A stretch of 64,000 nucleotides of DNA, taken from the NCBI GenBank assembly GCA_963840225.1, contig CAWIYH010000002.1, forward strand, positions 839,934-903,933. The letters run 5' to 3'. The position numbers and the translations under genes are program-made. The stretch is from an uncultured Acidobacteriota bacterium (GTDB lineage Bacteria > Acidobacteriota > Vicinamibacteria > Vicinamibacterales > CAVVIG01). Shown piece by piece: positions 5,514 to 30,268 of the stretch; the stretch's first letter is position 1, and each line of letters starts with the position of its first letter. The notes below the pieces were generated by a model. That model saw only the letters and a program-made list of their open reading frames with translations. It was not told the origin of the DNA and did no database searches.

Positions 5514-5567
5514 GCCGGACGGCGAGCGGCAGCGGACAGGAACGCGCGAGGATATCGTCGAGCCGAC

Positions 5568-6063: not shown

Positions 6064-6966
6064 TCACTTCCGTTCGGATTCCTTCCCGGCAGTAGCCAGG
6101 TAGCTGCGACGCGCACGCGCGGTCATGCCTGGCTGCTTCACCTTCACCGACACCTTGTGGACCTTTCCGTCGAGTGCGGGAGGTACGAAGCCGATCACGT
6201 ACTGGCTGTGGAGCTGGTACGCGATGTGGGTGAAGGTCGGCGCCAGGTCGTTCGTGCGCTTCAGCTCGAAGTAGCCGCCCCCGGTCTCGTCCGCCAGCTT
6301 CTTCAACCCGCGGTCCGGGCGCGTGTGCACCACCTGGACGCCGTTGAAGAACGAGCTCTCCAGCCCGATGGCGTAGACCATGACGTCCTCGGCCCGCGCG
6401 CGGTCGATGACATTGCCCAGGCTGGCGTGGCTCTCGGTGTCGTCGCCGTCGGTGAACACCAGCACGACCCTCCGTCCCTCGATCCCCTTCAGCTCGTCAA
6501 TACTCGCCGCGAGGGCGTCGTACAACAGCGTGCCGTTGCCGTAGTCGAGGTCCCGGAGGTCGCCGGCGAGCTCGTCGCGATCGGACGTGAACTTCGAGCT
6601 GAACTGGATCTTGTCGTTGAACGCCCCGACGCGCCCCTTGTCGTCGGGCAGCAGCCGGATCACGAACTGCTCGGCCGCCTGCCGCAGCAGATCGATCGAC
6701 TCGGTCATGCTCGCGCTCGTGTCCAGCATGACGATGACGGTGATCGGCTGCACCTCGTTGTGGAACAGCTCGATCGGCTGCGGCTTCTCGTTGTCGAACA
6801 CCTCGAAATCGGCCTTCGTCAGGTTCGGGACGAGACGGTTCTGCGCGTCGGTCACCGTCGCAAAGACCGACACCAGGGCCGTCTGCGTGCGGAAGGTCGG
6901 CTGCTGCGCCGCCACGACGCCGCCGGACACGAGCGCCGCGAACACGAGGGCCGCTGGGGATCTCAT
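6064..6966 (-). CDS. secreted VWA domain protein (acidobacterial VWFA-related type)
   Basis: 300 aa with a signal peptide. MIDAS DxSxS (MLDTSASM), VVLVFTDGDD, and an overall layout like the TIGR03436-type family. Confidence 0.8.
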   Translation of the reverse strand: MRSPAALVFAALVSGGVVAAQQPTFRTQTALVSVFATVTDAQNRLVPNLTKADFEVFDNEKPQPIELFHNEVQPITVIVMLDTSASMTESIDLLRQAAEQFVIRLLPDDKGRVGAFNDKIQFSSKFTSDRDELAGDLRDLDYGNGTLLYDALAASIDELKGIEGRRVVLVFTDGDDTESHASLGNVIDRARAEDVMVYAIGLESSFFNGVQVVHTRPDRGLKKLADETGGGYFELKRTNDLAPTFTHIAYQLHSQYVIGFVPPALDGKVHKVSVKVKQPGMTARARRSYLATAGKESERK

Positions 6967-7021
6967 GATCCCAGCTTAACGCAACGGCTGTGTTCGTGCG
7001 AGCGGACCCGGGAAAAGGCGA

Positions 7022-10015
7022 CTATCGTCCGGCTCGTTTCGTCAGCGCATCGAGCTCCGTCCGGTAGAATTCCATCTGCGAACGCTGGTCGGCCGTCGGC
7101 CGCCCGGTCGAGTCTCCGAGCGATCGGTACAGGGTGGTGATGCGCGCCCGCAGCTCGCGCGCCGGCCGTCCGGCCTCGTCGTCGGGGGACGCGCCCCGCT
7201 CGTTCACCCGATCGACCAGCGCCGTCGCCGAGCGATACAGGTCCGCGATCGCGGTGAGCGCCGCGTTCCATTCCTGCCGTTCGGCCGCGCCCACCTGGAT
7301 TCGTGGATCGTCCTTCACGTCGACCGGCTGTTCGGTGCTGCCGCCGCCCGCAGACAGCCTGACGGTGTAGCGACCCGGCAGCACCAGCGGGCCGGGCAAC
7401 GGCTGCGCCCGCCGGCCGGGTTCGGACGCCTCGGGGGGCGGCAGGGGATCGCTCCTCAGGTTCCAGACCGCCCGGTTGATACCGGCGGCACCCGCCACGT
7501 GGAGCGTCGCGACGGTCGCCCCGGCCGCGTCGCGGACGGTCAGCGTGGCCGCCGGGTCGGGCGCGCGCAGGTAGAAGTCCACGATCGCGCCGGCGGGCGG
7601 ATTCTGACCGTGGAAGACCAGGTCGCCTTCGTGCGCCCTCGGGTTGAAGTAGCGTATCTCCTCGGCGGCGCGCACCGGAAAGAGATGCGCCGGGCGGGCC
7701 ATGACCTCCCCCGTCAGCTGTTGCAGCGACGCGATGTCGTCGAGAATCCAGACGCCGCGACCGTGGGTCGCCAGCACCAGGTCGTTGTCGCGGGGATGGA
7801 CGACCAGGTCGTTGACCGGCACGCGCGGCAGGTTGCTTCCGAACGCAATCCAGTGCCGGCCGGCATCGTTGGTCAGGTAGAGGCCGTGCTCGGTGCCGAT
7901 GTAGAGCAAGCGCGGGTTCTTCGGATCCTCGTGCACGGCGTGGATGACCCGCGCTGGCGGCAGGTCGCCGACGATCGACGTCCACGTGGCGCCGGAATCG
8001 GTCGAGCGATACAGGTAGTTGCCGAAGTCGTTGCTGCGGTGACCGTCGAACGACACGTAGACGGTCGCCGCGTCGTGCCGCGACGCCTCGATGCCCGACA
8101 CCCACATGCTCTCGGGGAGGCCCGCGAAGCGCCGCCTCACGTCGGCCCAGTGCCGCCCGTCATCCTGCGATACCTGGACGTTGCCGTCGTCGGTGCCGAC
8201 GTAGAGCAGCCCGCGCTTGAGCGGCGACTCCGCGATCTCGGTGAGGGTCGGGTAGTACGGGATGCCGTCGTCGAGCGCGGGGGTGGTCGGGCCCGGCAGC
8301 CGCCCCATGATGCGCAGCGTGCTGCGGTCGACCTGGGTCGTGAGATCGCCGAGCGAGGTCCACGTGTCTCCACGGTCGGTGCTCTTCCACAACCGGTTCG
8401 TCCCCGCGTACAGCGTGTCGGAGTCGAACGGCGACAGGATGAAGGGCGCGTCCCAGTTGGCGGGCGCCATCGCGTTGCCGAGCTCCGGCTCGACGGCGCC
8501 CCGCCTGCCCCACGTCTTCCAGTTGCGCCGCGCTTCGATGTGGCCCTGCCGGTCGCCGGGGCGGATATCGCGCTGCTCATTGGAAATCGAGTTGTTCCGC
8601 AGCAGCCCGAGGTACTGAGACTCGGAATAGAAGGTGCTGTCGTCGTTCGGATCGGCGAGGGCCTTGAAGCCATCGCCGCCGCACGTCCGGATCCAGTCGC
8701 CGCTGTCCACGCCGCTCGTGTAGGAGGTCGCGCTGGGGCCGCGCCAGCACCCGTTGTCCTGCAGCCCGCCGTACACCCAGTACGGGCGCCGCATGTCGAC
8801 GGCGACGTGGTACCACTGGCTGATCGGCAGCGACGTGACGTAGATCCATTTCACGCCGCGGTCGTACGACACGCCGACGCCGCCGTCGTCGGCCTTGAGC
8901 AGGTGGCGCGAATCGTGCGGGTCGATCCAGACCATCCGATCGTCGCCGTGCAGCGACTGTCGCGGCGACACGAATGTCTTGCCGCCGTCGTCGGAGTAGC
9001 TGTAGCTGACCATGTAGATCCGCCTGTCGTCGTTCGGGTCGACGCGGATCTGGCTGGCGTAGGTCGGTCGCGGGTTCCAGTCGCCCATCAACCGCCACGA
9101 TTCGCCCTTGTCGTTAGACCGGTAGATGCCGCCCTGCCGCTCCTCGTATGCGGTCGACGCGTTGTAGCGAAGGCCCTGCTCGACCGAGGCGTACACGACG
9201 CTCGGGTTCTTGCGATAGATCGAGATGCCGATGCGACCCAGCTCGCCCGAGGGAAGCCCGCCGGTCAGCTTCTTCCAGTGGGAGCCGCCGTCCGTGGTCT
9301 TATAGAGCGCGTTGCCCGGACCGCCGCCGTCGAACCCGTACGCGCGCCGCCGCCGCTGGTGCGCCGCCGCATACAGGATATTCGGGTCGGAGGGGTCCAT
9401 GGCGACGTCGCTGACGCCGGTGTCCTCGTCCAGCTGCAGCGAGGCCGTCCACGTCTTTCCGCCGTCGATCGACTTGTACAGACCGCGTTCCTTGTTCGGC
9501 CCCCACAGGTGCCCGAGCGCGGCGACGTACACGGTGTCCGGATTGGTCGGATGGAGGACGATGCGGCCGATATGCTCGCTGTCGCGGAGGCCCATGTTCG
9601 TCCACGTCCGGCCGGCGTCGACCGACTTGTAGGCGCCGTTGCCCCATCCCGAGCTTTGCCGGTTCGTGGCCTCGCCGGTCCCGACCCACACGACATCCGG
9701 GCTGGACTGGCTGACCGTCACGCAGCCGACCGACGCGACCGCCTCGTGCTCGAACACCGGAACGAACGTGGTGCCGTTGTCGGTCGTCTTCCAGACGCCG
9801 CCGGTGGCGCTGGCGACGTAGTACGTGCTGGTGTTGGATTCGACGACCGCGAGGTCGACGACGCGGCCGCTCATGGCAGCCGGCCCGATGGTGCGGAAGC
9901 TGAGGCCGGCGAGGGTCCCGGGCCGCAGGGGAGCGTCCTGGGCGGCGGGAGCCGCGGCGGACAAGGCGGTCGCGAGCGCAAACAGCAGGCCGGGCAGCGG
10001 ACGGGTTCGGGTCAT
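7022..10015 (-). CDS. secreted BNR/Asp-box repeat protein (sortilin/VPS10-like)
   Basis: 997 aa with a signal peptide. About ten S/T-x-D-x-G-x-T/S-W repeats (TTDNGTTF, SVDAGRTWT, SIDGGKTWT, TTDGGSHW, SNDKGESW, STDRGDTWT, SQDDGRHW, STDSGATWT, TNDAGRHW). Confidence 0.8.
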   Translation of the reverse strand: MTRTRPLPGLLFALATALSAAAPAAQDAPLRPGTLAGLSFRTIGPAAMSGRVVDLAVVESNTSTYYVASATGGVWKTTDNGTTFVPVFEHEAVASVGCVTVSQSSPDVVWVGTGEATNRQSSGWGNGAYKSVDAGRTWTNMGLRDSEHIGRIVLHPTNPDTVYVAALGHLWGPNKERGLYKSIDGGKTWTASLQLDEDTGVSDVAMDPSDPNILYAAAHQRRRRAYGFDGGGPGNALYKTTDGGSHWKKLTGGLPSGELGRIGISIYRKNPSVVYASVEQGLRYNASTAYEERQGGIYRSNDKGESWRLMGDWNPRPTYASQIRVDPNDDRRIYMVSYSYSDDGGKTFVSPRQSLHGDDRMVWIDPHDSRHLLKADDGGVGVSYDRGVKWIYVTSLPISQWYHVAVDMRRPYWVYGGLQDNGCWRGPSATSYTSGVDSGDWIRTCGGDGFKALADPNDDSTFYSESQYLGLLRNNSISNEQRDIRPGDRQGHIEARRNWKTWGRRGAVEPELGNAMAPANWDAPFILSPFDSDTLYAGTNRLWKSTDRGDTWTSLGDLTTQVDRSTLRIMGRLPGPTTPALDDGIPYYPTLTEIAESPLKRGLLYVGTDDGNVQVSQDDGRHWADVRRRFAGLPESMWVSGIEASRHDAATVYVSFDGHRSNDFGNYLYRSTDSGATWTSIVGDLPPARVIHAVHEDPKNPRLLYIGTEHGLYLTNDAGRHWIAFGSNLPRVPVNDLVVHPRDNDLVLATHGRGVWILDDIASLQQLTGEVMARPAHLFPVRAAEEIRYFNPRAHEGDLVFHGQNPPAGAIVDFYLRAPDPAATLTVRDAAGATVATLHVAGAAGINRAVWNLRSDPLPPPEASEPGRRAQPLPGPLVLPGRYTVRLSAGGGSTEQPVDVKDDPRIQVGAAERQEWNAALTAIADLYRSATALVDRVNERGASPDDEAGRPARELRARITTLYRSLGDSTGRPTADQRSQMEFYRTELDALTKRAGR

Positions 10016-10190
10016 CGGGGCGCTCCTGAAAAGGGAGCGGGCATCTTATCGCGCGCGGGAGGTCCGTTGGCTCAGGCGGGTACAACGGCTGACAAATGCC
10101 GAGTTGACAGGTCGGATATCGGACATGTACGCTGGCTATATTGAGACTGAGTCTCGTTTTCGAGACCCGATCCAGCACACTTCATCGGCC

Positions 10191-10973
10191 ATGCTGCAAG
10201 CGTTCGTCATCACGCTCCGCGAGGGTCTCGAGGCCTTCCTGATTGTCGCTATCAGCCTGTCGTACCTCCGGAAGTCAGGCCGCGTCCAGCTGGCGCGAGC
10301 GGTCCACTGGGGCATTGCGGCGGCGGTCGCCCTGAGCCTGGGTGGCGGGTACCTGCTGTACCACGCGGCCAACCAGGAGTGGCTCGACGGGCCGCTGGCC
10401 ATCGTGGCGGCCGTCTCGGTCACCTGGATGGTGGTCCACATGTGGCGCGCCGGACGGCACATGAGGCGCGATATCGAGGGGCGGCTCTACTCGTCCAGCG
10501 GCCGGCCAGGCGCGGGGGCCTTCGCGGGCGTCTTCCTGTTCACGGTCCTCATGGTGACGCGCGAGGGCATGGAGACGGCACTGCTGCTCCTGCAGCTCAG
10601 GGAGACGCTGAACCTGGCCGTGGGCGCCGCGGCCGGCGTCGCCGGCGCCGCCGCGGTGGCCTGGATGTGGTCCCGCTACGGCCACCGCGTCAACCTCATG
10701 CTCTTCTTCCAGGCGACCGCGATCTTCCTCTTCGTGTTCGTCGTGCAGCTGACGATTCGGGGCGTGCATGAAATGGCCGAGCAGAACTTCCTGCCTGCGA
10801 GCGCCCTCATCCACGATCGTACCGAGGCATGGGGCCCGGACAGCCCGTTCGGCCACATGCTCACCTATTCGCTCGTCGTGCTGCCGGCGATCTGGCTCGT
10901 GATTCGGTCGTCGATCTTCCGCCCCCGGCCGCGGCGGCGCGATGCGCTCCCGCAGAGCTCCGCCGTTCGCTAG
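10191..10973 (+). CDS. FTR1-family high-affinity iron permease
   Basis: ATG at 10191; 260 aa, multi-TM. Two REXXE iron-binding motifs (REGLEA, REGMET). Confidence 0.85.
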   Translation: MLQAFVITLREGLEAFLIVAISLSYLRKSGRVQLARAVHWGIAAAVALSLGGGYLLYHAANQEWLDGPLAIVAAVSVTWMVVHMWRAGRHMRRDIEGRLYSSSGRPGAGAFAGVFLFTVLMVTREGMETALLLLQLRETLNLAVGAAAGVAGAAAVAWMWSRYGHRVNLMLFFQATAIFLFVFVVQLTIRGVHEMAEQNFLPASALIHDRTEAWGPDSPFGHMLTYSLVVLPAIWLVIRSSIFRPRPRRRDALPQSSAVR

Positions 10974-11061
10974 CAGGGGCGCACAATCCCTCGGCCCACG
11001 TCGCGACTGAGACGAGTGGCGGTGCGACAGGTGCTTGGGCATCCGCCATGTCGATATCGTC

Positions 11062-12861
11062 TCAGACTGGCGGCGGGTCGGCCAGGACATCCGCGTCGGC
11101 GCCGCCACCGAGTTCGCCGACGAACGTCGTGAGAAGTTCGCGGACCCGATGTTGTGCCGCCCGCGGCCGGAACGAATGGCCCGCGCCGTCCACCACCACG
11201 GAGCGGATCGTCTCCTGGACGGCCGGGTTCCGGACCGCGCGTTGCGCATGGGCTTCGAAGTAGGCAAGTCCGTCGCCGCAAGCGCTGAAGACCAACAGCG
11301 TCCGGATTCGACGGCCAGCGATGGCCACGAGATCGCGCGCGAGGCCCTCGGGCGGTGTATGAGCGAACGCGGCGCTGAAACGGTGCGCGAGCCGTCGCGA
11401 CAGCGCTTCTGTCACGGTGCGAGTGAAGGCTGAAATCGACGCCTGCCCGCGCAGCGCCTTCGCCCATTTCTGCGGGGCGCGAATCGACTGCCGATACCGT
11501 TCGAGCTCACGCCCCTCGGCCAGCCATTTCGCTCCACCATCCGGCTCGCGCAGGTAAAGCGGTGGATTGATCGCCGCGACGGCGTCGACCTCGACGCCGT
11601 CGGCTGCGGCGCGAAAGGCCAGCCACGCGCCGGAGCACAGGCCGACGCCCACGACCGGTCGACCTGGCGCCGACGTTCGCAGGAACTCGATGGCCGCCCG
11701 CGCATCGTCGAACATGTGCGACGGGTAGGCGACTTGTGCCGTCGCGCCCGGAGGGGGCGCGCTGTCGCCGATGCCGCCGATGTCGAATCGCAGCACGACG
11801 TGCCCGGACGCGACCCACTGACGCGCGAGCGGGACGTACATCCGGTGCGGACCGATGTGATGTTCGACGCCGGTGTTGAAGAAGACGATCGCGGCACGAG
11901 AGCCCGGTCGGTGCGGTGTGCCGAGCACCCCGAACAGCCGCTCGTTTCGACCGAAGCGGACGGTCCGTTCGAGAACGCCATCGACGCGCGAAGCGTGATG
12001 CCCGGCGTCAGAGGACGCGGCGCGCCGGCGGTTCGTCGAACAGACAGGCCAGGCCGCAAGCCAGTCGACGATCGCGCGGATCGGGGCCTCTGGAACCGTC
12101 GCGAGCTGCGGCGGCACGAGCATCGCCTCCGTGCCGTCCGGACGAATCTCCGTGACACGACACCCGAGCTGCGTGAGCGTCGGCGCAACGGCCGAAACCG
12201 GCGTCCGACCGTCGCGGTGGACGATGAGGACGTCGCGGGCGGGGCAGGCCGCGATCGCGCCTGGCGTCAGGGTGGAGAGGCCATCCAGCGTGCTTCTGCT
12301 GATCGCATGTCCGGCGACGTTCAGTTCGTCGGGCGGATCGTCGGCGACGGCGTGGTCCTGCCGGCTCAACGCGGCGAGAGCTCTTGTTTCCCGCGCACAT
12401 TCGGAGCCGGACGCGAACGGACTCCACAGCACCAGACGATCGACGTCCGCCCCCGCCCCCGCATGCAGCGCGAGCAGCGCGCCCGCGCGAAGACCGACGA
12501 GCGCTACGCTGCGGGAAGCGGACAGGTCGCGGGCGACGGCCATGGCGTGCCGGACGCTGCGCAGCCAGGCGTCGACGCGATGGGGGTCGGCGTAGTCGCC
12601 GGCAGAATTGCCCGTCCCGTCGTAGTCGAGCCGCAGCACGTCGAACCCGGTCCGGGCGATCGAATCCGCGAGGATTCTCCACGCGTGATACGCCGACATG
12701 TACTCGTAGCCGAGCGGGGGACACAGCACGACGCCGGCACCTCTACGCAGATCCGCAGCCGGCGCATGGTGCCAGACGAACAGCGGACGTCCCTCGTCCC
12801 CCGGGATGAACCGGGCGGCTGCGGTGACCAGCGCTTCGTGGTGCGCGGTCTCAGGTGACAT
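11062..12861 (-). CDS. tandem alpha/beta-hydrolase-fold protein (two fused domains; Arg and Cys at the nucleophile elbows)
   Basis: ATG at 12861 (GGAG 7 nt upstream; alternative GTG at 12891). 599 aa. N-half: FDVLRLDYDGTGNSAGDY...VGLRAGALLA. C-half: VVLRFDIGGIGDSAPPP...VGLCSGAWLA. The start overlaps the GH2 stop by 11 nt. Confidence 0.75.
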   Translation of the reverse strand: MSPETAHHEALVTAAARFIPGDEGRPLFVWHHAPAADLRRGAGVVLCPPLGYEYMSAYHAWRILADSIARTGFDVLRLDYDGTGNSAGDYADPHRVDAWLRSVRHAMAVARDLSASRSVALVGLRAGALLALHAGAGADVDRLVLWSPFASGSECARETRALAALSRQDHAVADDPPDELNVAGHAISRSTLDGLSTLTPGAIAACPARDVLIVHRDGRTPVSAVAPTLTQLGCRVTEIRPDGTEAMLVPPQLATVPEAPIRAIVDWLAAWPVCSTNRRRAASSDAGHHASRVDGVLERTVRFGRNERLFGVLGTPHRPGSRAAIVFFNTGVEHHIGPHRMYVPLARQWVASGHVVLRFDIGGIGDSAPPPGATAQVAYPSHMFDDARAAIEFLRTSAPGRPVVGVGLCSGAWLAFRAAADGVEVDAVAAINPPLYLREPDGGAKWLAEGRELERYRQSIRAPQKWAKALRGQASISAFTRTVTEALSRRLAHRFSAAFAHTPPEGLARDLVAIAGRRIRTLLVFSACGDGLAYFEAHAQRAVRNPAVQETIRSVVVDGAGHSFRPRAAQHRVRELLTTFVGELGGGADADVLADPPPV

Positions 12862-15382
12862 CGACCGGCTCCGCCGCGACTGATATCGCACGGCCGTTCA
12901 ACGCCGACACGCTGCCCCGCGGCGCCGCCCCGCGCGCTTGCGCCGCCAGCCGGATGCATCTGGTCTGTCCAGGTTCGACGCTCACATAATTGTCGTCCGG
13001 CGTGAACTGATCGAACCCGATCGACACCGCATGCGCGAACCGTCTCGTCTCGAGGTACAGCGCGAAGCCGCCCGGCGCCGGTTCGACGCGGGCCGCGAGC
13101 CCGATGTCCCGCTCGTCGGGCGGCAGCGTCCCGGGGAAATAGCAGGCGTCGGCGAGCAGCGTGCCTGTCGCCCGGTCGCGCAGCGTCGCGGCAACCAGAT
13201 CGTGCGCGCGCGGTCCGAAGCGATAGGCGTCCGTGAGATCGCGAAAGCCGCCCGCGAGCGCGTCGACGTGAAGGGATGCAAAGCCGCGCGGCGCCACATG
13301 GATCCCGCGGTGATCCGGCGCACCATGCGGCAGCCCGTCCCGGTAGACGGTGAGCTGCAGGTTGCCGGCGACCGCGTCCACCGAGTCGTTGACGACGTGC
13401 AGCCACAATCCGTTGAGCCCCTCGTCGGCGAACAGGAGCGCGATCGGCGCGAGCGCGCGCTTGAGATACCAATACGCTGCCTTCGGGCGGCCCGTGGAAT
13501 CGACGATTCCCCATCCCGCACCCGGCTCGAGATCCTGTGCGAGCCAGACCAGCGCGCCACGACAGGTCGACCCTGGCCGGCGCCATTCGGCGAACGTCCG
13601 CAGCATCGCCTCTGCGGTCGCGATGCGGCCGAGCGTCAGATAGCGCTCCGGATCGCGGGAGCGAAGCGCGAGGGACGGGACGCCGAAGAGCCGTTCGACG
13701 TAGTGGTCCCTCACCTCTTCGAAGTCCCAGGCCGCGCCGCGATCGCGCGGCACGCGCGCCTTCCATCGCGGATCGTGTCCGATGCCGGATCTCCCACTCA
13801 ACACGAGGGCCACGGTCGGCTCGTCAGGAACGTTCGAGAACGCGAGGCACTCGGCCGCGAACCGCACCCCGGCGCGCCGCGCGTCGTCGAGCGGGCGGCG
13901 ATAGGCGCCCACCCCGTAGTAGTGGCTGACGCCGCTGTTCACCTGAAACGGGAACGTCCCGCCGATCGGGGTCGTCGGCAGCCAGACCGCGTCGGGCGCG
14001 ATCTCCCGCGCGAGCGCGCCGAGCGATTCGTCGCCGGCCGGGTTGGATCGCGTTGCGGCATCCAGGCCGAACATCGCCGCCTGCTGATCGACCTCGCTGT
14101 TGCCGCAGACGACGGCGAGCGACGGCCGCGACTGCAGCGCCCGAAGCACCTGCGCCGCCTCGAGCGTCGCGCTTCGCCGGAAGCCCTCGTCGGTCCAGGG
14201 GTAGTCCATGCTGGCGAACATCAAGTCCTGCCACACCAGGATGCCGAGTTCGTCGCAGAGATCGTGAAAGGCGTCGGCCTCGTAGGTCATCGTGCCGGGG
14301 ACGCGGATCATGTTGATGCCCCCGTCGCGCAGGCGCTCGAGCGCCGTGCGGTACGCCGACTCGTCCACGAGCAACCGATGGAGATCCAGCGGAGTCCAGC
14401 AGACGCCACGGCAGAACACCGGCACGCCGTTCAGGACGAGACCGAACGCCTGGCCGTCGGTGCCGCGATCGAGCTGGAGCGTTCGGAAGCCGACGCCTCC
14501 GAGGTCGACCGCCTCCGCCGCCGAGTCGACGCCGAGCGATGCGCGCACGCCGTACAGGGCCGGGCGGCCGTGTGTGTGAGGCCACCACCGCTCCGGCCGC
14601 GGCACGCGGACGAGCGCCGACAGATCGTACGAACCGTCCGCGCGCCGCGTCCCGGTCACAGACTGCGTGCAGTTGCCGACGCTCACGGCGCCTGCGACGC
14701 CGGCGCGCGCGCCGTCAGTCGTCCTCACCTGAAGATCGACGCTGACGACGCCGTCCTCACCGTCGATCCGTGCGTGAACCGCGGCGCGCTCGATCGCGAA
14801 GGCCGACGACTCGAGGGAAATGGGGCGCCACGGGCCGACCGGCGCGATCGGCGGGCACCAGCCCGGCATCCGCCCGAGCAGGGAGGTCCGGTACCACCGG
14901 AGGGCCTGGTGCGAGACGAGCTGTGCACGCCATCGGGGACGCGGGCGCTTCGGAGCGAGCAGCGGCGCGAGCGCGTGAAAGCGCAGGAGGAGCTCGTTGT
15001 CGGGCCGGATGGCGCCGTCGAGCTCCACGATATGCGCGAGAAACATGTTGTCCGACTGCAGGACGAGCCGGCCGTTCAGCCACACGTCGGCGATGGTGGC
15101 GAGTCCGCCGAACGTCATGCGGCGAACCCCGGAGCCGGCCGAAAACCGGCAGCGATACCACCAATCGTCCGCGTCGAGATCGATCATCCGATCGGACGTC
15201 CCCTCGCCGGCGGCCCGCAGAGCCGCCGCGACCGGCAGCGGGCTCTCGGAGCGAATCCAGCGGGCCTGCCGGGCGTCAAGAGCCTGCGGATCAAGCGCCG
15301 AACCGGGTGGCAGCCTCGCGACCTCCCAGCGGCCCCCGAGCGGGACGGCACGGCGCGGGCCCAGGATTCGGGCTGACGCCAT
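12851..15382 (-). CDS. glycoside hydrolase family 2 protein (beta-mannosidase-like), no signal peptide
   Basis: 843 aa. DVWLNGRLV sugar-binding-domain region, GINMIRVPGTMTYEADAFHDLCDELGILVWQDLMFA, a GNSE acid/base-type motif and FAAECLAF. Confidence 0.85.
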   Translation of the reverse strand: MASARILGPRRAVPLGGRWEVARLPPGSALDPQALDARQARWIRSESPLPVAAALRAAGEGTSDRMIDLDADDWWYRCRFSAGSGVRRMTFGGLATIADVWLNGRLVLQSDNMFLAHIVELDGAIRPDNELLLRFHALAPLLAPKRPRPRWRAQLVSHQALRWYRTSLLGRMPGWCPPIAPVGPWRPISLESSAFAIERAAVHARIDGEDGVVSVDLQVRTTDGARAGVAGAVSVGNCTQSVTGTRRADGSYDLSALVRVPRPERWWPHTHGRPALYGVRASLGVDSAAEAVDLGGVGFRTLQLDRGTDGQAFGLVLNGVPVFCRGVCWTPLDLHRLLVDESAYRTALERLRDGGINMIRVPGTMTYEADAFHDLCDELGILVWQDLMFASMDYPWTDEGFRRSATLEAAQVLRALQSRPSLAVVCGNSEVDQQAAMFGLDAATRSNPAGDESLGALAREIAPDAVWLPTTPIGGTFPFQVNSGVSHYYGVGAYRRPLDDARRAGVRFAAECLAFSNVPDEPTVALVLSGRSGIGHDPRWKARVPRDRGAAWDFEEVRDHYVERLFGVPSLALRSRDPERYLTLGRIATAEAMLRTFAEWRRPGSTCRGALVWLAQDLEPGAGWGIVDSTGRPKAAYWYLKRALAPIALLFADEGLNGLWLHVVNDSVDAVAGNLQLTVYRDGLPHGAPDHRGIHVAPRGFASLHVDALAGGFRDLTDAYRFGPRAHDLVAATLRDRATGTLLADACYFPGTLPPDERDIGLAARVEPAPGGFALYLETRRFAHAVSIGFDQFTPDDNYVSVEPGQTRCIRLAAQARGAAPRGSVSALNGRAISVAAEPVDVT

Positions 15383-15388
15383 CGCTCG

Positions 15389-16387
15389 TCATCTCCCGCC
15401 CGCGGCCGCGCCGCATCGTTCGGCGAGGCCGGTCATCACGCGATCCCACGCCTGCGCCATCGGATCGACCAGCGGCGCCGGATCGAACGGGCGTCGCGTC
15501 CGGACGACGCGCGCCGTCTTGAACTGGAGCGCCTTGGCCTGGGTCGCGATGAGATCGCACGAGTCGGTCAGCTGTTCGAGCCCGCGCTCGCCGTTCGCCG
15601 CGAGCCAGCGCAGGTAGGTCGCCGCCAGCTCGAACGCGGCACCGCACTGCCGCAGCGTGGCGAACGCGTAGCGATGGTAGTGCTCCAGCGTTGCGCCGGA
15701 CACGACCTCGAGGTCGTGGGACATCCGTGCCGCGTACCGCCGGAAGGGGTTGCTCGACGGCGCGCGCTCGAGATGGAGGCGCAGGCGATCGCGGGAGGCG
15801 TTCACCAGGGCACGCCCTGTCGATCCGGGACGCGGCGGCAGCTTGACCGCCTCGACGTAGGGCGGCAGACATTCCGGCCGCTCCAGATCCGCCGTGAGCC
15901 TCAGCACCCCGCTGAAATCGTCCCCTTGCAGCTCGAAGTAGCCGCCGTTGTGAAAGTAGCCGAGCCACGCGCCGCTTCGGTCGAGCGCCTGGATGCCGAT
16001 GGAGCTCTTGACGTGGTCGCGTCGATAGGACGTGCCGGCCGTATCGGGCAGAAAGAACGCATCGACCTCCACGATCGGCAGACGGCCGCGTTCGAGCTGC
16101 TCCTCGACGTGTCCGACGAGCCGATCCCAGATGGTCAGCTCGATCACGTCCACGCCGTACAACGCGTGCAGATCCTCGAGCGGGAACTTGAAGAACGTCC
16201 ACTGATCGCCTTCGAAGTCGACGGCGAACGTGAACGGCAGCGCAGCCGTCGGTTCGGCGTTCCACGCGTGCAGCAGCTCGATCCAGAGATCGACCGCGCA
16301 GTTGGCTTCGGGCCAGGTGCGGTCGCTGCCATGAACCGCATGCCGGACGTAGCGGGCCGCATCGATCGGCCAGAGCTGACGCCTCAT
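15389..16387 (-). CDS. DUF1839-like protein
   Basis: Internal ATG at 16387 forms an ATGA overlap with the ligase stop; the upstream part of the 512-aa ORF overlaps the ligase gene out of frame. 332 aa: MRRQLWPIDAARYVRHAVHGSDRTWPEANCAVDLWIELLHAWN... Family recognised from memory only. Confidence 0.65.
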   Translation of the reverse strand: MRRQLWPIDAARYVRHAVHGSDRTWPEANCAVDLWIELLHAWNAEPTAALPFTFAVDFEGDQWTFFKFPLEDLHALYGVDVIELTIWDRLVGHVEEQLERGRLPIVEVDAFFLPDTAGTSYRRDHVKSSIGIQALDRSGAWLGYFHNGGYFELQGDDFSGVLRLTADLERPECLPPYVEAVKLPPRPGSTGRALVNASRDRLRLHLERAPSSNPFRRYAARMSHDLEVVSGATLEHYHRYAFATLRQCGAAFELAATYLRWLAANGERGLEQLTDSCDLIATQAKALQFKTARVVRTRRPFDPAPLVDPMAQAWDRVMTGLAERCGAAAGGR

Positions 16388-17304
16388 AGGCCCAGCGCCG
16401 TCCGCACGGACGCCTTCCACCGGCCTCTGTCCAGGCCGTGCGTCCGGTAGAGTGCCAGCGCGAAGCGTTCGAGCCCGAACCCGACGCAGGAGGTGTGCGC
16501 GGCCGTGCCGTCGGACAGTCCAATGGAGAAAAGGCGCCCGAAATAGTCCTGGTGGTAGTTGAGCGATACCACCGCGGTCGGATGTTCGTCGCTCGAAATC
16601 GTCGCCGTGAACTCCAGCTTCAACCGCCGATCGCGCTGGCCGCCCGCCAGCAGCTTGCCCCCGCGGCCGAAGAAGGGATCCGCCGCCACCTCGCAGGCGG
16701 CCGGAAGTCCGAGCGACTCGAGCAGGTGCCGTGTCCGGTCGATCCACCCGTCGCGCCAGCGCACGACCTGTTCGGCCGCTCCGGCCCGGACGTGCTCGTG
16801 CATCCGGAACATCTGCATCCGCCCGATATCGTTCGACGGCTCGTGGCGGAAACAGTACGACATGACGTCGATCAGGCGCCCACCCGCCGGGAGCGCGCCG
16901 GTCAGCTGCGGATACACGGGGTAGCACGCGGCCGGCGTCAACACCACCGTCGCCGGGCGGAAGGAGGCGCTCCAGTCCTCATCGTGGTCGATCGAACGCA
17001 GCAGCGCCCGATGATCGTCCTCGCTGCCGTCGAAGTGATTGATGGTGCCGATCAGGTGCGGGAATGATTTCAGGTAGCCGCTCGCTTCGAAATGGCGGCG
17101 GTTCAGCACCGGCGGAAAGCGCATGACTTCCGGTCGATCCGCGGCGCCGATGCCGGCGACCAGCCGATCGACGCGATCGACGGTATCCTCGAACTCGGCG
17201 CTGCGTCCGTACACGCCTGGCACGCCGGTCTCGATCAGCAGGCCCTGCGCGATGATCTCGTCGCGGAAACCGACACGGGCGGCGACGCTCGAGCGGCCCG
17301 GCAT
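16384..17304 (-). CDS. amino acid:[acyl-carrier-protein] ligase (truncated SerRS-like class II aaRS core)
   Basis: 306 aa with no tRNA-binding arm. Class II motif 2 YCFRHE...FRMHE and motif 3 GFGLERFALALY. Cys (TPAACYPVY), Glu (RHE) and Cys (HTSCVGFG) sit at the Zn-ligand positions of methanogen-type SerRS homologues. Confidence 0.85.
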   Translation of the reverse strand: MPGRSSVAARVGFRDEIIAQGLLIETGVPGVYGRSAEFEDTVDRVDRLVAGIGAADRPEVMRFPPVLNRRHFEASGYLKSFPHLIGTINHFDGSEDDHRALLRSIDHDEDWSASFRPATVVLTPAACYPVYPQLTGALPAGGRLIDVMSYCFRHEPSNDIGRMQMFRMHEHVRAGAAEQVVRWRDGWIDRTRHLLESLGLPAACEVAADPFFGRGGKLLAGGQRDRRLKLEFTATISSDEHPTAVVSLNYHQDYFGRLFSIGLSDGTAAHTSCVGFGLERFALALYRTHGLDRGRWKASVRTALGL

Positions 17305-17307
17305 TCC

Positions 17308-18471
17308 TCAGTCGTCCTTGTGAACCAGGAGCATCGCGGCATTCGCGGAGGTGATGCGGTCGTTGCTGATCATGAGCGCCGCGCTGTGCGCGTCCCGCAA
17401 GTGGCGCCCCACCGAGTACGGTGAATCGTTGCGGTAGCCGCTGATGCCGCACACCGCCAGCACGCGCGCGACGATGTCCGGCGCCAGTCGCGCCGCGGAC
17501 GCTTTCAGGTTGTTCATCCTGATGGCGAATCCGACGCTGCCGGCGCCGTCGTCTTCACCCTGCGTTCGCTCGAAATCGGCGATCCCTTCGCGGATCGTCG
17601 CGCGCATGATCCCGAGATCGGCCACCGTTTCGGCCAGCCGGAACGCGCCCGGCGGAACGGAGCCCGGAGACCGCCGCGCTTCGGCCCGAACGAAGGCGCG
17701 CGCTCTTCCGACCGCGTCGCTCGCGAGGCCGAGCCACACGGCGCTCCACAATACGTGCGACACCGGCACCATGGTCCGGCCCGCGATGTCGGCGAACGCC
17801 ACGGGCAGGATCTGCTCGGGCGACGCGTGACCGTCGACCGTGAACCCGCAACTGCGGGTCCCGCGCATGCCGAGCGCATCCCACGCGCTCGTCGGCGTCA
17901 GGGTCGTGTCGCGCTTCCGCAGCAGCATCAGCACCTGATCGCCGGGCGCCGCGTCGGGCATGCGGCGCGCCGTCAGCAGGATGTCGTCGGCTTCCTGGCC
18001 GTAGGACACGACCGGAGCCTGCTTCGTGATCCGGACGCGGGCGCCTTCCCGGGTCGCGGCACAGACGCTCCGCCGCAGATCGCCGCCGGTTCCGATCTCG
18101 GACGTCGCGGAAGCGATGAGCCATTCGTGCCGGGCCAGATCGTCGAGGTACTGGCGGAAGAACCGCGACGCTCCGTGATGCCGGACGATGCACGCGACCT
18201 CGATCTGGTGCATGGCGAAGATCATCGCGGTGGATGCGCAGGCTCTCGCGAGCGTTTCGCAGCACTCCGCCAGCTCGCGGAGGGAAGCGCCCTGTCCGCC
18301 GAGCTCGCAGGGAACCAGTGCGCTCAACAGGCGTTCCTCGCGAATCGCGGCGAACGCCTCGTGCGGAAACCGGGCGTCGCGGTCGACGGCCTCGGCCCAG
18401 GGTGCGGCGGCCGATGCGGCAACGCGCCGGGCGGCATCGGCCAGCGAGCGGGCGGGCGCGGACACACTCAC
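17308..18471 (-). CDS. acyl-CoA dehydrogenase-fold flavoprotein
   Basis: 387 aa; GTG start in a GTGA overlap with the carrier-protein stop. ACAD layout (SATSEIGTGGDLR, WDALGMRGTRS, GYRNDSPYSVGRHLRDA). In a by-eye alignment the MCAD-type YEGT base position reads MISN, so the catalytic base may lie elsewhere. Confidence 0.8.
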   Translation of the reverse strand: MSVSAPARSLADAARRVAASAAAPWAEAVDRDARFPHEAFAAIREERLLSALVPCELGGQGASLRELAECCETLARACASTAMIFAMHQIEVACIVRHHGASRFFRQYLDDLARHEWLIASATSEIGTGGDLRRSVCAATREGARVRITKQAPVVSYGQEADDILLTARRMPDAAPGDQVLMLLRKRDTTLTPTSAWDALGMRGTRSCGFTVDGHASPEQILPVAFADIAGRTMVPVSHVLWSAVWLGLASDAVGRARAFVRAEARRSPGSVPPGAFRLAETVADLGIMRATIREGIADFERTQGEDDGAGSVGFAIRMNNLKASAARLAPDIVARVLAVCGISGYRNDSPYSVGRHLRDAHSAALMISNDRITSANAAMLLVHKDD

Positions 18472-18758
18472 GCGTGATCTCCGGTCAGATCCCGGACGTT
18501 CGCGCAGATGGCGGCGATCGACGCAAACGACCCGCGCTGCATCAATCGATCGGGAAACTCGACGTCGAATCGTTCCTCGATGGCGAGCATCAGGTTGACG
18601 CTGCCGTGCGACGTCAATCCCGCTTCGTACAGGTTGCTGTGGCGGTTCAACGCCCTCACGTCGACGCCGAGCCGCGCATGGTCGCGCAGGATCTGGCGGA
18701 CGGCCTCCTCGATCGCCGCCTGCACCGGAACGTCTTCTGCCTCAGCCACGGACGGCAC
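18468..18758 (-). CDS. acyl/aminoacyl carrier protein
   Basis: 96 aa, GTG start. Four-helix carrier-protein pattern with the candidate phosphopantetheine serine in LYEAGLTSHGSVNLMLAIEERF. Confidence 0.75.
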   Translation of the reverse strand: MPSVAEAEDVPVQAAIEEAVRQILRDHARLGVDVRALNRHSNLYEAGLTSHGSVNLMLAIEERFDVEFPDRLMQRGSFASIAAICANVRDLTGDHA

Positions 18759-19779
18759 CCCCGTGCTCAGCCATTAGCAATCCGTACGCCGACTGGTGTA
18801 GTGCGGTGTGCAGGAACGTCCGCAGCGAGGCGATCTGTCTTGCGTACCGACGGCGAGTGGACGAATCGAGGCCGAACACACCAACGGTGGCGAGGTATGA
18901 AAGGCCTACCATTCCGCCTTCAAGGATGAGCTTGCCGCCGCTCGTGGGCAGTCCGTTGCTCCGAAGCACGGCGCAGAGGGCAAACGTTGGAACCGCCCCG
19001 ACCATTGCCGGCCCGAGCGTCGCGCGGAGGAAGGAACCCAGCGGCACGGCCGCCTGCCGGCAGGCGGCCGGCGTGATGAAGATGAGGTGGCCGACGGCAA
19101 TGGGAACGACGGTCCCAAGCGCGACGCCGACCATCCCATACCGCCCAACCCAGACGAGACTCAGGACGAGATTCGCGATCGCCTCGGCCACCCATACCCA
19201 GGCGACCAGCCGATGTCTTCCGATCGCCACGAGAATGCTGTGCTGCGACGCGTTCGCGACGAGCACCACGCCCGCAAACGAGAGGATGTACAGCGGCATG
19301 ATGCTGGCCTCGAATCCCGGGCCCATCCACGCCCGGACGAGCGGGTGCGCATAGGCCACCAGGCAAATCGTCACGCCCACGACGAGCACCACGCCGACGC
19401 GCGCACCTTCGACGAGCGCCGAGGCGAGCCCGGCGCGATCGTTCGCCCCGCTGATTCCGACCGCCTCCGGAAACAGCATGCCACTGAACTGATCGCAAAG
19501 CCGGCGCTGGAAGACCGAGAGGCGCAAGGCCACGGCGTACACGGCGACCGCGGCGGTACCGAGGAACGCGCCGATGACGAGGTTGTCGAGGTTGAACGCG
19601 ACCTGATAGGCCATGTCGATCACGAACAGGTAGACACTGAGCGTCGTCACCTCGCGCCAGAGCGCCCGGCTGAAGAGCCGTGGGCGGATCTGCAGCGCCG
19701 GAAACACGCTCCGGGCCGTCTCCACGTACGCGAGATAGCCGGCGAGCGCAACGAGCGTCGTCGCGAGCACGAGCGTCAC
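18742..19779 (-). CDS. MOP/Wzx-type oligosaccharide flippase, C-terminal part (split gene)
   Basis: 345 aa, about 8 TM helices. Typical Wzx middle and C-terminal region (RPRLFSRALWREVTTLSVYLFV...). GTG at 19779 overlaps the stop of the N-terminal ORF (GTGA). Confidence 0.75.
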   Translation of the reverse strand: MTLVLATTLVALAGYLAYVETARSVFPALQIRPRLFSRALWREVTTLSVYLFVIDMAYQVAFNLDNLVIGAFLGTAAVAVYAVALRLSVFQRRLCDQFSGMLFPEAVGISGANDRAGLASALVEGARVGVVLVVGVTICLVAYAHPLVRAWMGPGFEASIMPLYILSFAGVVLVANASQHSILVAIGRHRLVAWVWVAEAIANLVLSLVWVGRYGMVGVALGTVVPIAVGHLIFITPAACRQAAVPLGSFLRATLGPAMVGAVPTFALCAVLRSNGLPTSGGKLILEGGMVGLSYLATVGVFGLDSSTRRRYARQIASLRTFLHTALHQSAYGLLMAEHGGAVRG

Positions 19780-20339
19780 CAGTCCTCCGCCGGCGACGAG
19801 CGCACGACGCAGGTGACGAGGGCGGTCGCGAGCGCGAGCCCGACATCGATACAGTTGTTCCGGACGAAGGCCTGCCTCGACGTGGCAACGGCGCCGAACA
19901 TGGTCATCGGAAAGCCGATCGCCACCCGCACGCCGAGGATGACGAGCACGGCGCGGGCGCTTCCGATATCGGAAGGCGCCAGGTGAGGAAACCGCGGGAT
20001 GCCAACCTGGGCCATGACGGCGGTGATCGCCAGCACGACCACGCCAATCCCGGCGTAGACGCAGAAAAAGGTGCTGACGATGCGATTGTCCCGGGTCTCG
20101 TCGCCCCGCGTGTCGGCCGCGACGATATGCCGAACGAGCCCGTTGTCATAGCCCAGGTCGAGCAGCGTGAAATAGGAGGTGATCGACGCGACGAGCATCC
20201 AGAGTCCGTACTGCGACTTGCCCAGATGCCCCATCGTGAACGGCATCAGGAAGATGCCGACGCCGATGTTCACCGCCAGCGCGAGGTATCGAGTGATGGT
20301 GCCGCCGACGAGATTGGTGGCGACGGTCCTGCCGGACAC
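19776..20339 (-). CDS. MOP/Wzx-type oligosaccharide flippase, N-terminal part (split gene)
   Basis: 187 aa, GTG start. N-terminal Wzx pattern (NLVGGTITRYLALAVNIGVGIFLMPFTMGHLGKSQYGLWMLVASI). It ends in a non-hydrophobic tail (RSSPAEDW*), while the other frame continues as a good TM helix. Confidence 0.75.
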   Translation of the reverse strand: MSGRTVATNLVGGTITRYLALAVNIGVGIFLMPFTMGHLGKSQYGLWMLVASITSYFTLLDLGYDNGLVRHIVAADTRGDETRDNRIVSTFFCVYAGIGVVVLAITAVMAQVGIPRFPHLAPSDIGSARAVLVILGVRVAIGFPMTMFGAVATSRQAFVRNNCIDVGLALATALVTCVVRSSPAEDW

Positions 20340-20452
20340 GGCTTAGCCGTAAGCAAAACACTAGCCCTGCGACGACGGGCTCGCAGGGAGACCGGCCTGG
20401 CGTCGCCGGCTCAACAGCGCGGGGTCGGCTCCTTGCCGCTTACAATCGTCCC

Positions 20453-20863
20453 GTGGCCACGAAACCTCCCATCGTCGTCGATTTGACGTGGACCGGCGAG
20501 CTGATCTTTTCCGCGACCAGTGGCGACACGTCGATGACCGTTGACAGCGCCGCCCGCGCCGGGCCGTCTCCCGTGCAGGCCCTGGCCGTCGCTCTCGCCG
20601 GCTGCATGGCGGTCGACGTCGCGCACATTCTCGCCAAGGGCCGCCATCCGCTCCGGGCGCTCCGGGCCCATTTGGTCGGCGACCGCGCCCAGGACGATCC
20701 GCACCGCTTCGTGCGGATGACGCTCCGCTTCGAGATCGGCGGCGGCGTTCCCTCCGAGGCCGTCGAGCGCGCGATCGCGCTCTCGCGCGACAAGTACTGC
20801 TCGGTGTGGCACTCGCTGCGGCAGGACATCGACTTCCAGGTGTCATTTGCCCTCGGCGCCTAG
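20453..20863 (+). CDS. OsmC/Ohr-family peroxiredoxin-like protein
   Basis: 136 aa, GTG start. PVQALAVALAGCMAVDV and SRDKYCSVWHSL carry the two conserved Cys of the OsmC family. Confidence 0.85.
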   Translation: MATKPPIVVDLTWTGELIFSATSGDTSMTVDSAARAGPSPVQALAVALAGCMAVDVAHILAKGRHPLRALRAHLVGDRAQDDPHRFVRMTLRFEIGGGVPSEAVERAIALSRDKYCSVWHSLRQDIDFQVSFALGA

Positions 20864-21926
20864 ACGGGCCTACATCGACTGGGCGCGTGCCCTGGCCGTG
20901 CTCCTCATGATCGAGGCGCACGTCGCCGACGCCTGGACGCGCGCGGGCTCGCGTTCGACCCTCGCGTTCCGCGACGCGGTCATCCTCGGCGGCTTCGCCG
21001 CGCCGCTCTTCCTCTGGCTCGCGGGCCTCTCGCTCGTCCTGTCGGCGTCTTCCACCGCCCGGCGCGCCGGCCGACGCTCGGCGGGCGTGCGGCGCGTATT
21101 CTTCCGCGGCCTGGAGATCTTCGGGCTCGCCTTCCTGTTCCGTCTCCAGGCGTTCGTCGTCTCGCCGGGCAGCTCGCCGTGGATGATTCTCCGCGTCGAC
21201 ATCCTCAACGTCATGGGACCGGCGATCGCCGCGTCGGCGCTTCTGTGGGCCGTTTCCTCGTCCCGGCCGCTCGTGGCCTCCCTCTTCGCGCTTGCCGCCT
21301 CCGTCATCGCGCTCGTCACTCCGCTCGTCCGTGAAGCCACGGTCATCGATCGCCTGCCGTCCCTCCTGCAGTGGTACCTCCGCCCCTCGGGAGCGTTCAC
21401 CAATTTCACGCTGCTGCCGTGGGCCGGCTTCGTGTTCGCCGGCGCCGCGGTCGGCGTGCTGGTAGCCGCGGCGGGCGACGGGAAGTCGGAGCGACGGCTC
21501 AACGCCGGACTCGCGGCGGCGGGTACCTTTCTGGTCGTCGGCGGCTTCGCCCTGGCGCAGAGGGCGACCCTGTACCGAGAATCGTCGTTCTGGACCAGTT
21601 CGCCGAGCTGGTTCGTCATCCGCCTCGGCATCATGATGCTCGCGCTGGCGTTGCTGTACGGCCTGGCGGCGCTCGCCGCGAGCCGTCGCGTCCGCATCGA
21701 GCCGCTCGAGGCGTTCGGGCGCCATTCGCTGTTCGTGTACTGGATCCACGTCGAGCTGGTGTACGGCTACGCCAGCTGGCTGTGGCGCAGGCGCCTGCCG
21801 CTGTGGAGCACGGCGATCGGGTACGCGCTGTTCGTGGTGCTGCTGTACGGGGTGGTGCGCCTCGAGGAGCAGTGGCTGGCCCGGCGGGCCGCGGGGCGGG
21901 TCCTGACTCAGAACGCCATCATGTAG
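20847..21926 (+). CDS. DUF1624 / heparan-alpha-glucosaminide N-acetyltransferase-like membrane acyltransferase
   Basis: 359 aa, TTG start. N-terminal RRAYIDWARALAVLLMIEAH and about 9-10 TM helices are typical of the DUF1624 family. Confidence 0.65.
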   Translation: MPSAPRRAYIDWARALAVLLMIEAHVADAWTRAGSRSTLAFRDAVILGGFAAPLFLWLAGLSLVLSASSTARRAGRRSAGVRRVFFRGLEIFGLAFLFRLQAFVVSPGSSPWMILRVDILNVMGPAIAASALLWAVSSSRPLVASLFALAASVIALVTPLVREATVIDRLPSLLQWYLRPSGAFTNFTLLPWAGFVFAGAAVGVLVAAAGDGKSERRLNAGLAAAGTFLVVGGFALAQRATLYRESSFWTSSPSWFVIRLGIMMLALALLYGLAALAASRRVRIEPLEAFGRHSLFVYWIHVELVYGYASWLWRRRLPLWSTAIGYALFVVLLYGVVRLEEQWLARRAAGRVLTQNAIM

Positions 21927-30267: not shown

Positions 30268-30268
30268 C

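Follow-up and report, generated by a model that had tools for sequence, protein, structure and literature searches.

The window analysed here, a 64,000-nucleotide stretch of contig CAWIYH010000002.1 from an uncultured Acidobacteriota bacterium, carries an eight-gene operon, orthologous to the Agrobacterium Atu2573-type cassette, that is a new example of a known, widespread, and functionally unsolved arrangement. At its centre are an amino acid--[carrier protein] ligase, built on the core of a class II aminoacyl-tRNA synthetase (aaRS), and a dedicated carrier protein (CP), accompanied by an ACAD-fold flavoprotein, a DUF1839 protein, a family 2 glycoside hydrolase (GH2), a fused double alpha/beta-hydrolase, and a Wzx-type flippase. 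We put at roughly one-half (~0.5) the probability that the cassette performs carrier-protein-templated acyl transfer that decorates an exported sugar or glycan. Amino acid:CP ligases have been a textbook aaRS paralogue since 2010, their reaction known and their purpose not, and a 2022 review still called their biological role unknown (PMC9437257). The hypothesis itself is sound but was put forward earlier; Aravind, de Souza, and Iyer (2010; Biol Direct 5:48; PMC2922099), in a note added in proof, described a ligase resembling seryl-tRNA synthetase (SerRS) together with an acyl carrier protein (ACP), a redox enzyme, Atu2574, a glycosidase, and surface-polysaccharide genes, and proposed that an amino acid is ligated to the amino group of a cell-surface sugar, Atu2574 forming the amide and the redox enzyme modifying the aminoacyl group. 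Our gene set (Atu2574 being now DUF1839) and hypothesis are the same; the 2010 account differs in that its redox enzyme was called Rossmann-fold whereas it is ACAD-fold here, in that it offered no structural support for Atu2574, and in that the double hydrolase and its fusion to a flippase were not mentioned. A literature search (Atu2571-2575, bll0955/0956, A281G, and carrier protein/GH2/exopolysaccharide) found no functional or experimental study of the pathway. New here are structural and comparative support and a set of testable roles, namely a DUF1839 amide synthase acting through Cys30, an ACAD-fold protein that would not be a normal dehydrogenase, a GH2 with its active site intact, and a Cys-nucleophile hydrolase linked to a Wzx flippase. 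The window itself adds little, i.e., one further example and a flippase-first gene order.

Conservation of the cassette was assessed by alignment against a single genome for each species, using tblastn with the window proteins and clustering of the neighbouring ORFs (open reading frames). In virtually all of the resulting 80 loci, the core CP–ACAD–ligase–DUF1839–GH2 kept its gene order and strand, an arrangement far beyond chance; the ACAD gene was present in all 80, the DUF1839 gene, linked to those of the CP and ligase, in 79, the CP gene in 78, and the GH2 gene in 75. Considering that two of the GH2-less loci are cut by contig ends, GH2 was found in 75 of the 78 loci whose contig reaches far enough; the true exceptions are L012, L025, and L071, and in L078 the GH2 gene is frameshifted and split across two frames. 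In L025 (2553-4409), the ligase gene is followed directly by that of the double hydrolase, with neither DUF1839 nor GH2. Hosts belong to at least three phyla (Alpha-/Betaproteobacteria, Gemmatimonadota, and Myxococcota), with genera including Rhizobium, Agrobacterium, Neorhizobium, Shinella, Bosea, Methylobacterium, Methylosinus, Azospirillum, Burkholderia, and Hydrogenophaga, and a close metagenomic relative carries the label Vicinamibacterales. An earlier reading of the window from its letters (hereafter the first-pass annotation) had allowed that the gene order might be conserved in no related genome; it recurs in 80 loci. The same annotation tied the ligase and CP to DUF1839 and GH2, and this link is real, but it is not special to the window, being the family's invariant core, Atu2573-type loci included, as published in 2010. 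Since the gene upstream of CP differs by lineage, the conserved operon normally starts at CP. Unlike in the Bll0957 and Atu2573 systems, a flippase gene heads the operon here, an order seen in the window's clade only; this flippase-first order and the frameshift in the flippase are the lineage-specific features of the window's operon. In L008, L016, L018, L029, L036, and ~20 other Rhizobium-group loci, a second aaRS-paralogue system (efp, an EpmA-like paralogue of class II lysyl-tRNA synthetase, and an EpmB-like radical SAM aminomutase) lies beside the cassette at roughly 5300-8400; it is absent elsewhere and probably reflects lineage synteny rather than membership of the cassette.

Within the window, all eight ORFs lie on the minus strand and run in the same direction from 20339 down to 11062. 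Each has the base composition of coding sequence (GC3, i.e., G+C at third codon positions, of 0.80-0.88 vs. GC2 of 0.42-0.56, in a window of 69% G+C), and public gene calls gave the same protein lengths for the operon ORFs. Successive genes meet at GTGA (19776-19779), a 17-nucleotide overlap (18742-18758), GTGA (18468-18471), a 3-nucleotide gap (17305-17307), ATGA (16384-16387), a 6-nucleotide gap (15383-15388), and an 11-nucleotide overlap (12851-12861), so that stop and start overlap at five of the seven junctions. The ORFs, every junction, and a family for each product had been listed in the first-pass annotation; all were recovered at the same coordinates, and profile and structure searches upheld each family identity. 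Since a gene for an FTR1 permease (9825-10973, plus strand) converges on the operon downstream and an OsmC gene (20453-20863, plus strand) diverges from it upstream, the eight ORFs are the entire co-directional block.

The 306-aa protein encoded at 16384-17304 (minus strand) is, judged by its sequence, clearly an amino acid--[carrier protein] ligase with a class II aaRS core and no tRNA-binding domain, which is what had been claimed for it beforehand. It scored 430 bits with NF005479, the amino acid--[ACP] ligase equivalog (cut-off 357), and 59 and 42 bits with SerRS models whose cut-offs are 611 and 490. Among structures, it matched Bradyrhizobium Bll0957 (4h2w and 3mey) at E = 2e-79 and type-2 SerRS at E = 1e-10, the latter over the core only (query residues 116-298 against residues 308-503 of a 527-aa chain). 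Motif 2 (YCFRHE), motif 3 (GFGLERF), and the Cys/Glu/Cys set C127/E155/C273, all picked out in the first reading, are present and invariant in 70 ligase orthologs. By comparison with the Bll0957 structure, C127, E155, and C273 are the predicted Zn ligands. The residue following the second Zn Cys is Gly (CVGFG) here and in all 70 orthologs vs. Ala (CVAFG) in Bll0957. Identity was 43% to Bll0957 and ~50% to the Agrobacterium loci, while the nearest named relatives were from Vicinamibacterales (63%) and Gemmatimonadales (59%); the family counts no fewer than 5938 protein clusters at E<=1e-10 and is very widely represented among soil and plant-associated bacteria. The window's pair resembles Bll0957/Bsr0959 of Bradyrhizobium and Atu2573/Atu2571 of Agrobacterium in enzyme family, Zn ligands, and the adjacent dedicated CP, and, as with Bradyrhizobium bll0958, an ACAD gene stands between the CP and ligase genes. 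In a Bradyrhizobium phaR mutant, bll0957 and the adjacent acd gene bll0958 were both ~3-fold up (PMC10888616), and homologues of the ligase load Gly or Ala onto CP (PMC5370406, a 2017 review; PMC9437257).

The dedicated CP (96 aa; 18468-18758, minus strand) is encoded two genes upstream of the ligase and was recognised by its PP-binding domain and by NF005480/PRK07081 (95 bits, cut-off 72). Its predicted phosphopantetheine site, Ser50, is invariant in 74 orthologs, as is G47, and weak matches to DltC models were also obtained. A gene for an ACPS-type 4'-phosphopantetheinyl transferase heads the operon in L088 (8126-8590) and L089 (8102-8578), whose ligases are 64-67% identical, which implies a dedicated supply of holo-CP there; the window operon has no such gene. 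For the reading in which the eight genes are independent neighbours, or in which the 306-aa protein has degenerated from SerRS and serves translation, no positive evidence emerged, and the promoter and terminator scans were uninformative (across 10700-20700, no signal rose above shuffled background). With overlaps at most junctions and gene order kept in 80 loci across phyla, and with a protein that exceeds the amino acid--[ACP] ligase cut-off, lacks a tRNA-binding domain, and falls far short of the SerRS cut-offs rather than grouping with genuine SerRS as the first-pass annotation had allowed for, this reading is refuted for practical purposes.

The transfer step of the proposed pathway would fall to the DUF1839 protein (15389-16387, minus strand), which matched PF08893 at E = 1e-116 (390 bits, cut-off 22.5) over 312 of the 313 profile positions. 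An AlphaFold2 model of this protein (pLDDT 84.5, pTM 0.87) comprised an alpha/beta region (residues 1-182) and a set of helices (residues 191-331). Foldseek aligned the model with three groups of PDB structures over its full length, at TM-scores of 0.5-0.6 and a probability of 1.00, namely AziU3/U2 from the azinomycin pathway (E = 6e-7), CtaG from the closthioamide pathway (E = 2e-6), and CcbD from the celesticetin pathway (E = 3e-4), while ordinary papain-like proteases reached TM-scores of just 0.2-0.3. Both CtaG and CcbD are ligases that depend on a carrier protein and have a Cys-His-Asp/Glu triad, a ping-pong mechanism, and a two-part fold architecture, and BtrH and AsbE are reported to share the fold of this class (PMC12865890, 2026); CcbD moves a prolyl group from CP to an amino sugar amine. 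On the strength of the model, DUF1839 is predicted to be a papain-fold transacylase of this kind, i.e., a CcbD-like carrier-protein-dependent amide synthase. C30, T116, H146, and D157 are invariant in 67 DUF1839 orthologs; in the model, C30 lies at a helix start and H146 at a strand end, and the spacing of C30-H146-D157 (116 + 11 residues) resembles that of C11-H128-D144 in CtaG (117 + 16). A 2023 survey also called DUF1839 papain-like and guessed at a role in cell-wall glycan processing (PMC10318531).

The analogy with butirosin biosynthesis drawn in the first-pass annotation is strengthened by these matches to the CtaG/CcbD/AziU3 fold class and by the placement of BtrH within it. DUF1839 shares with CcbD/LmbD, BtrH, and CtaG a predicted papain-like N domain, a helical C domain, an N-terminal Cys, and a downstream His. 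The donor in all of these systems is a carrier-protein thioester (on the CP of CcbZ/LmbN for CcbD/LmbD, and on BtrI for BtrH), and the acceptor of CcbD and BtrH is an amino sugar amine. Unlike CcbD, BtrH, and CtaG, to which it has no detectable sequence similarity, DUF1839 is paired with an aaRS-derived loader, theirs being a nonribosomal peptide synthetase (NRPS) adenylation domain or an ATP-grasp enzyme, and it resides in a conserved cassette spanning phyla whereas they belong to antibiotic clusters. Candidate DUF1839-GH2 fusions in L039 and L043 were rejected since their translations contain stop codons.

The ACAD-fold flavoprotein (17308-18471, minus strand), whose fold had been named beforehand and was confirmed by Pfam, scored above the cut-offs for Acyl-CoA_dh_N, Acyl-CoA_dh_1, and Acyl-CoA_dh_2 and below that for Acyl-CoA_dh_M (20.1 vs. 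33.3 bits). The position of the catalytic Glu in the YEG motif, a correspondence obtained by extending the alignment by hand, is occupied by I/V368 in all 74 orthologs, among which H88, H98, and H239 are invariant. Since the canonical catalytic Glu is missing, the protein would be no standard alpha,beta-dehydrogenase; such a reaction is unlikely from the sequence and, for a glycyl group, is impossible in any case. In PDB searches, its matches were equally weak to dehydrogenases and to the ACAD-fold oxygenases DszC, KijD3, DnmZ, and ORF36.

The GH2 protein (12851-15382, minus strand) is predicted to be a cytoplasmic, beta-mannosidase-like enzyme with an intact catalytic Glu pair. Pfam recognised N-terminal GH2 domains, comparison with beta-mannosidase structures gave E = 5e-53, and the N terminus contained no hydrophobic segment or signal peptide, so the earlier description of a beta-mannosidase-like GH2 lacking a signal peptide stands. 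In alignment with BtMan2A, E430 (GNSE) and E511 (AAEC) fall on its acid/base and nucleophile Glu residues and, with 115 other residues, are invariant in 68 GH2 orthologs. To judge from these residues, GH2 is probably active. It resembles the BtMan2A-type GH2 beta-mannosidases in multidomain architecture and in both catalytic Glu residues, and differs from them in being cytoplasmic, in sitting within a biosynthetic-looking operon, and in the loss of the Asp of the WDW motif, which was kept in neither of two alignments (the local sequence is GW-x-P, and the Asp aligns with G174 or C176).

The operon ends with a fused double alpha/beta-hydrolase (11062-12861, minus strand). The best NCBIfam match of its N half (residues 17-164) was TIGR03101 (109 bits, cut-off 202.75), and that of its C half (residues 305-581) was TIGR03100 (103 bits, cut-off 168.45). 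Since the nucleophile position is G/R, the N half is inactive; in the C half, the nucleophile elbow (G407-x-C409-S-G411) and H562 are invariant, and this Cys elbow with its His fits an enzyme of thioester exchange. The family includes 1841 representatives at E<=1e-30, nearly all of 570-650 aa and matched over their full length, and 47 of the 80 loci have a member within 10 kb, mostly directly after GH2 or converging on it. Two tandem double-hydrolase genes occur in a Gemmatimonadales locus (L005, 14347-17970), and a database protein of 1184 aa (P0253), about twice the usual size, has alpha/beta-hydrolase domains over its whole length. The likeness to exosortase-A loci suggested by the first-pass annotation survives in part, as TIGR03100 and TIGR03101 are the nearest families, but both scores are below the curated cut-offs. 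Like the exosortase-A (EpsH1) exopolysaccharide loci, the cassette unites, in a polysaccharide setting, an ATP-dependent loader and an ACP with a pair of alpha/beta-hydrolases; unlike in those loci, the halves are fused here, and exosortase loci use an acyl-CoA-ligase-like enzyme and a decarboxylase. No exosortase or PEP-CTERM gene was noticed among ten annotated flanking genes, although no search was aimed at them.

The link to glycans rests on the surroundings of the cassette in other genomes. In 82 loci scanned within 10 kb for polysaccharide-assembly genes, such genes were found in 34, comprising Wzx-type flippase (26 loci), GT4 (26), Wzz/GNVR (16), GT2 (3), Bac_transf (3), and polysaccharide deacetylase (2). 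Flippases were counted with a profile built from the locus flippases and with phmmer searches using single flippases, tblastn with the window halves having matched the closest relatives only. They occur in at least four arrangements. In the window's clade, the flippase comes first in the operon; in nine Rhizobiales loci, it directly precedes the double hydrolase within a convergent operon; in Breoghania and Roseibium, it lies between GH2 and hydrolase, with a deacetylase and GT2; and in nine Rhizobium genomes, it is fused to the double hydrolase in a single 1100-aa ORF with no internal stops and both sets of Pfam domains. The loci are not phylogenetically independent and the counts overstate independent events, but this variety argues against pure synteny, and the fusion ties the double hydrolase to the flippase.

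From these data, we propose the following pathway. In the loading step, which has been observed in vitro for homologues and would apply here by inference, the Zn-dependent class II ligase would adenylate an amino acid of the Gly/Ala class and transfer it as a thioester to the phosphopantetheine on Ser50. The ACAD-fold flavoprotein may then oxidise or oxygenate the tethered aminoacyl group, e.g., by converting the amine to an imine or 2-oxoacyl group or by N-hydroxylation. From its fold and linkage, Cys30 of DUF1839 would take the acyl group from CP and pass it to an acceptor amine, probably that of an amino sugar, to give an amide. The cytoplasmic GH2 would cut a beta-glycosidic bond of the acceptor or of the product. 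Finally, as the fusion suggests, the double hydrolase with Cys409 and His562 may act at the membrane with the Wzx-type flippase, as a second transacylase or a thioesterase, and a lipid-linked unit would be exported. Least accounted for in this scheme are the invariant cytoplasmic GH2 and the presence of two candidate Cys transacylases. In its most specific form, the scheme becomes a multi-phylum route in which Wzx-exported glycans would receive an acyl group that stems from Gly/Ala and has been oxidised by the flavoenzyme (such as a glyoxylyl, pyruvoyl, or N-hydroxy-aminoacyl amide), by means of an aaRS-derived loader and a DUF1839 amide synthase, with an active GH2 as, uniquely, an obligatory biosynthetic partner and the hydrolase coupled to the flippase; this version is conceivable but we regard it as doubtful. 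If the glycan reading is true, rhizobia, agrobacteria, Burkholderia, and Gemmatimonadota carry a surface modification that has so far been overlooked.

Several observations weigh against the decoration of an exported glycan. To our knowledge, no carrier-protein-dependent acylation system contains a glycoside hydrolase, and the invariant GH2 is therefore unexplained. The window's own flippase is frameshifted, and no glycosyltransferase lies within the window operon. The ACAD-fold protein is as near to sugar N-oxygenases of the KijD3/DnmZ type as to ACADs, and could therefore use an amino sugar rather than the CP thioester. For DUF1839, PDB searches with the single protein and with a 35-sequence profile detected no sequence-level similarity to any solved structure; the putative triad C30-H146-D157 derives from conservation and spacing, not from coordinates, and the 2023 survey proposed a C-(T/S)-H arrangement instead (PMC10318531). 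In addition, no polysaccharide gene was seen within 10 kb of the cassette in 48 of the 82 loci, and in L085 (NZ_CP050300.1, 116862-126218; plasmid p_3 of Phyllobacterium sp. 628) an MDR-family MFS transporter takes the place of the flippase directly upstream of CP. The L085 cassette is plasmid-borne and lies beside repABC, with LuxR- and LysR-type regulators nearby.

These last two observations would also suit a different product, i.e., a soluble small molecule, for instance an amide such as an N-(modified aminoacyl) amino sugar, exported by a nearby MOP or MFS transporter, in which case the polysaccharide genes would be mere neighbours. Consistent with this, the six-gene unit stands alone in several lineages, and every characterised structural relative of DUF1839 (CtaG and CcbD, together with BtrH and AsbE according to PMC12865890) makes small natural products in a small-molecule pathway. 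The transporters found, however, are of the Polysacc_synt (Wzx) type and not MATE, they are accompanied, in several independent arrangements, by genes for GT4, Wzz/GNVR, GT2, Bac_transf, and a deacetylase, nine genomes have the flippase fused to the double hydrolase, and so strict a conservation across phyla would be unusual for a specialised metabolite. We consider a small metabolite rather unlikely, though the strongest rival. For the first-pass annotation's suggestion that the aminoacyl group ends up on an exported glycan, the fold of DUF1839, the glycan genes, and the fusion provide comparative support, short of proof, with a small exported metabolite as the rival reading.

An acceptor in the membrane has to be weighed as well. 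DltABCD attaches D-Ala to teichoic acids and Vibrio AlmEFG attaches Gly to lipid A; in an analogous manner, the cassette might aminoacylate a membrane lipid or lipid A, with the double hydrolase as the final transferase. The logic of an ATP-dependent ligase, a dedicated CP, a hydrolase-fold transferase, and a membrane protein is the same as in those systems, which use an ATP-dependent ligase and a small CP to place a small amino acid on an envelope component, and the CP of the cassette has its weak matches to DltC. Such a target would leave both the invariant GH2, with its intact active site, and the Wzx/GT4/Wzz neighbours unaccounted for, and Pfam and NCBIfam searches revealed no homologue of an MBOAT protein or lipid A acyltransferase in the operon. 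Unlike DltABCD and AlmEFG, moreover, the cassette uses a class II aaRS core in place of an ANL ligase, lacks an MBOAT protein, and includes a flavoenzyme, a papain-fold transacylase, and a GH2. Lipid aminoacylation is accordingly improbable in our estimation, and acyl transfer to an exported sugar or glycan is the reading we prefer.

The flippase through which such a glycan would leave the cell is interrupted in the window. An N-terminal fragment (187 aa, ~4 transmembrane segments; 19776-20339, minus strand) gave weak matches to Pfam Polysacc_synt and NCBIfam WZX_like, and a C-terminal fragment (345 aa, ~8 transmembrane segments; 18742-19779, minus strand) matched Polysacc_synt_3 at 35.6 bits (cut-off 23); NCBIfam searches of the fragments reached no specific subfamily. 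Residues 1-179 of the N fragment are 81% identical to the intact 524-aa flippase of L002, and the C fragment is 81% identical to residues 180-509 of the same protein. Between residues 179 and 180 of the L002 flippase, tblastn switched frame, and DNA alignment located two extra bases (GC) in the window at 19801-19802 (minus strand). Since L002, L003, and L087 each have a single intact 524-aa ORF, where the window has two, the frameshift is specific to this assembly and, as far as the sequence goes, would be either real or a sequencing error. The split Wzx/MOP flippase of the first-pass annotation is thus confirmed as to family; its split is a 2-nucleotide insertion, and the flippase is the variable part of the cassette, being found in 26 of 82 loci.

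The divergent intergenic region between the flippase and OsmC starts (20340-20452) is presumed, from its position, to hold the operon promoter. A G+C-rich stem-loop of eight pairs followed by a T-run is found there on the operon strand (20365-20388, minus strand), 26 nucleotides upstream of the flippase start codon; terminator-like sites in this region were not above shuffled background. An Rfam scan of the window returned nothing at gathering score. In an Rfam scan of seven loci, the sole match was a thiamine pyrophosphate (TPP) riboswitch before thiC (L038, 8276-8387, minus strand), which is immediately upstream of an Agrobacterium cassette and unrelated to it; no riboswitch hinted at the amino acid used.

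Farther from the operon, genes for a DndB-like protein (27088-28272), a sugar-nucleotide 4,6-dehydratase (28273-29394), and a dTDP-4-dehydrorhamnose 3,5-epimerase (30134-30838), all on the plus strand, place sugar genes 8-10 kb upstream, with no evident operon link. A secreted protein with CBM9_1 and DUF5916 domains in Pfam and a signal-peptide-like N terminus is encoded on the operon strand, 1.6 kb upstream (21908-24109, minus strand). In L002, the gene of its homologue (16216-18516, plus strand; 54% identity) comes straight after that of the double hydrolase, stop and start overlapping. As a ninth component of the cassette it was not accepted, since it is adjacent in L002 only, merely near the operon in the window, and absent from L086; it is kept, with low confidence, as a possible accessory and may be a lineage-specific surface component. 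Literature searches found no paper mentioning DUF5916. Divergent from the operon, together with the OsmC-like gene, is a gene for a membrane acyltransferase of the Acyl_transf_3/HGSNAT type (20847-21926, plus strand); Acyl_transf_3 proteins often O-acylate polysaccharides.

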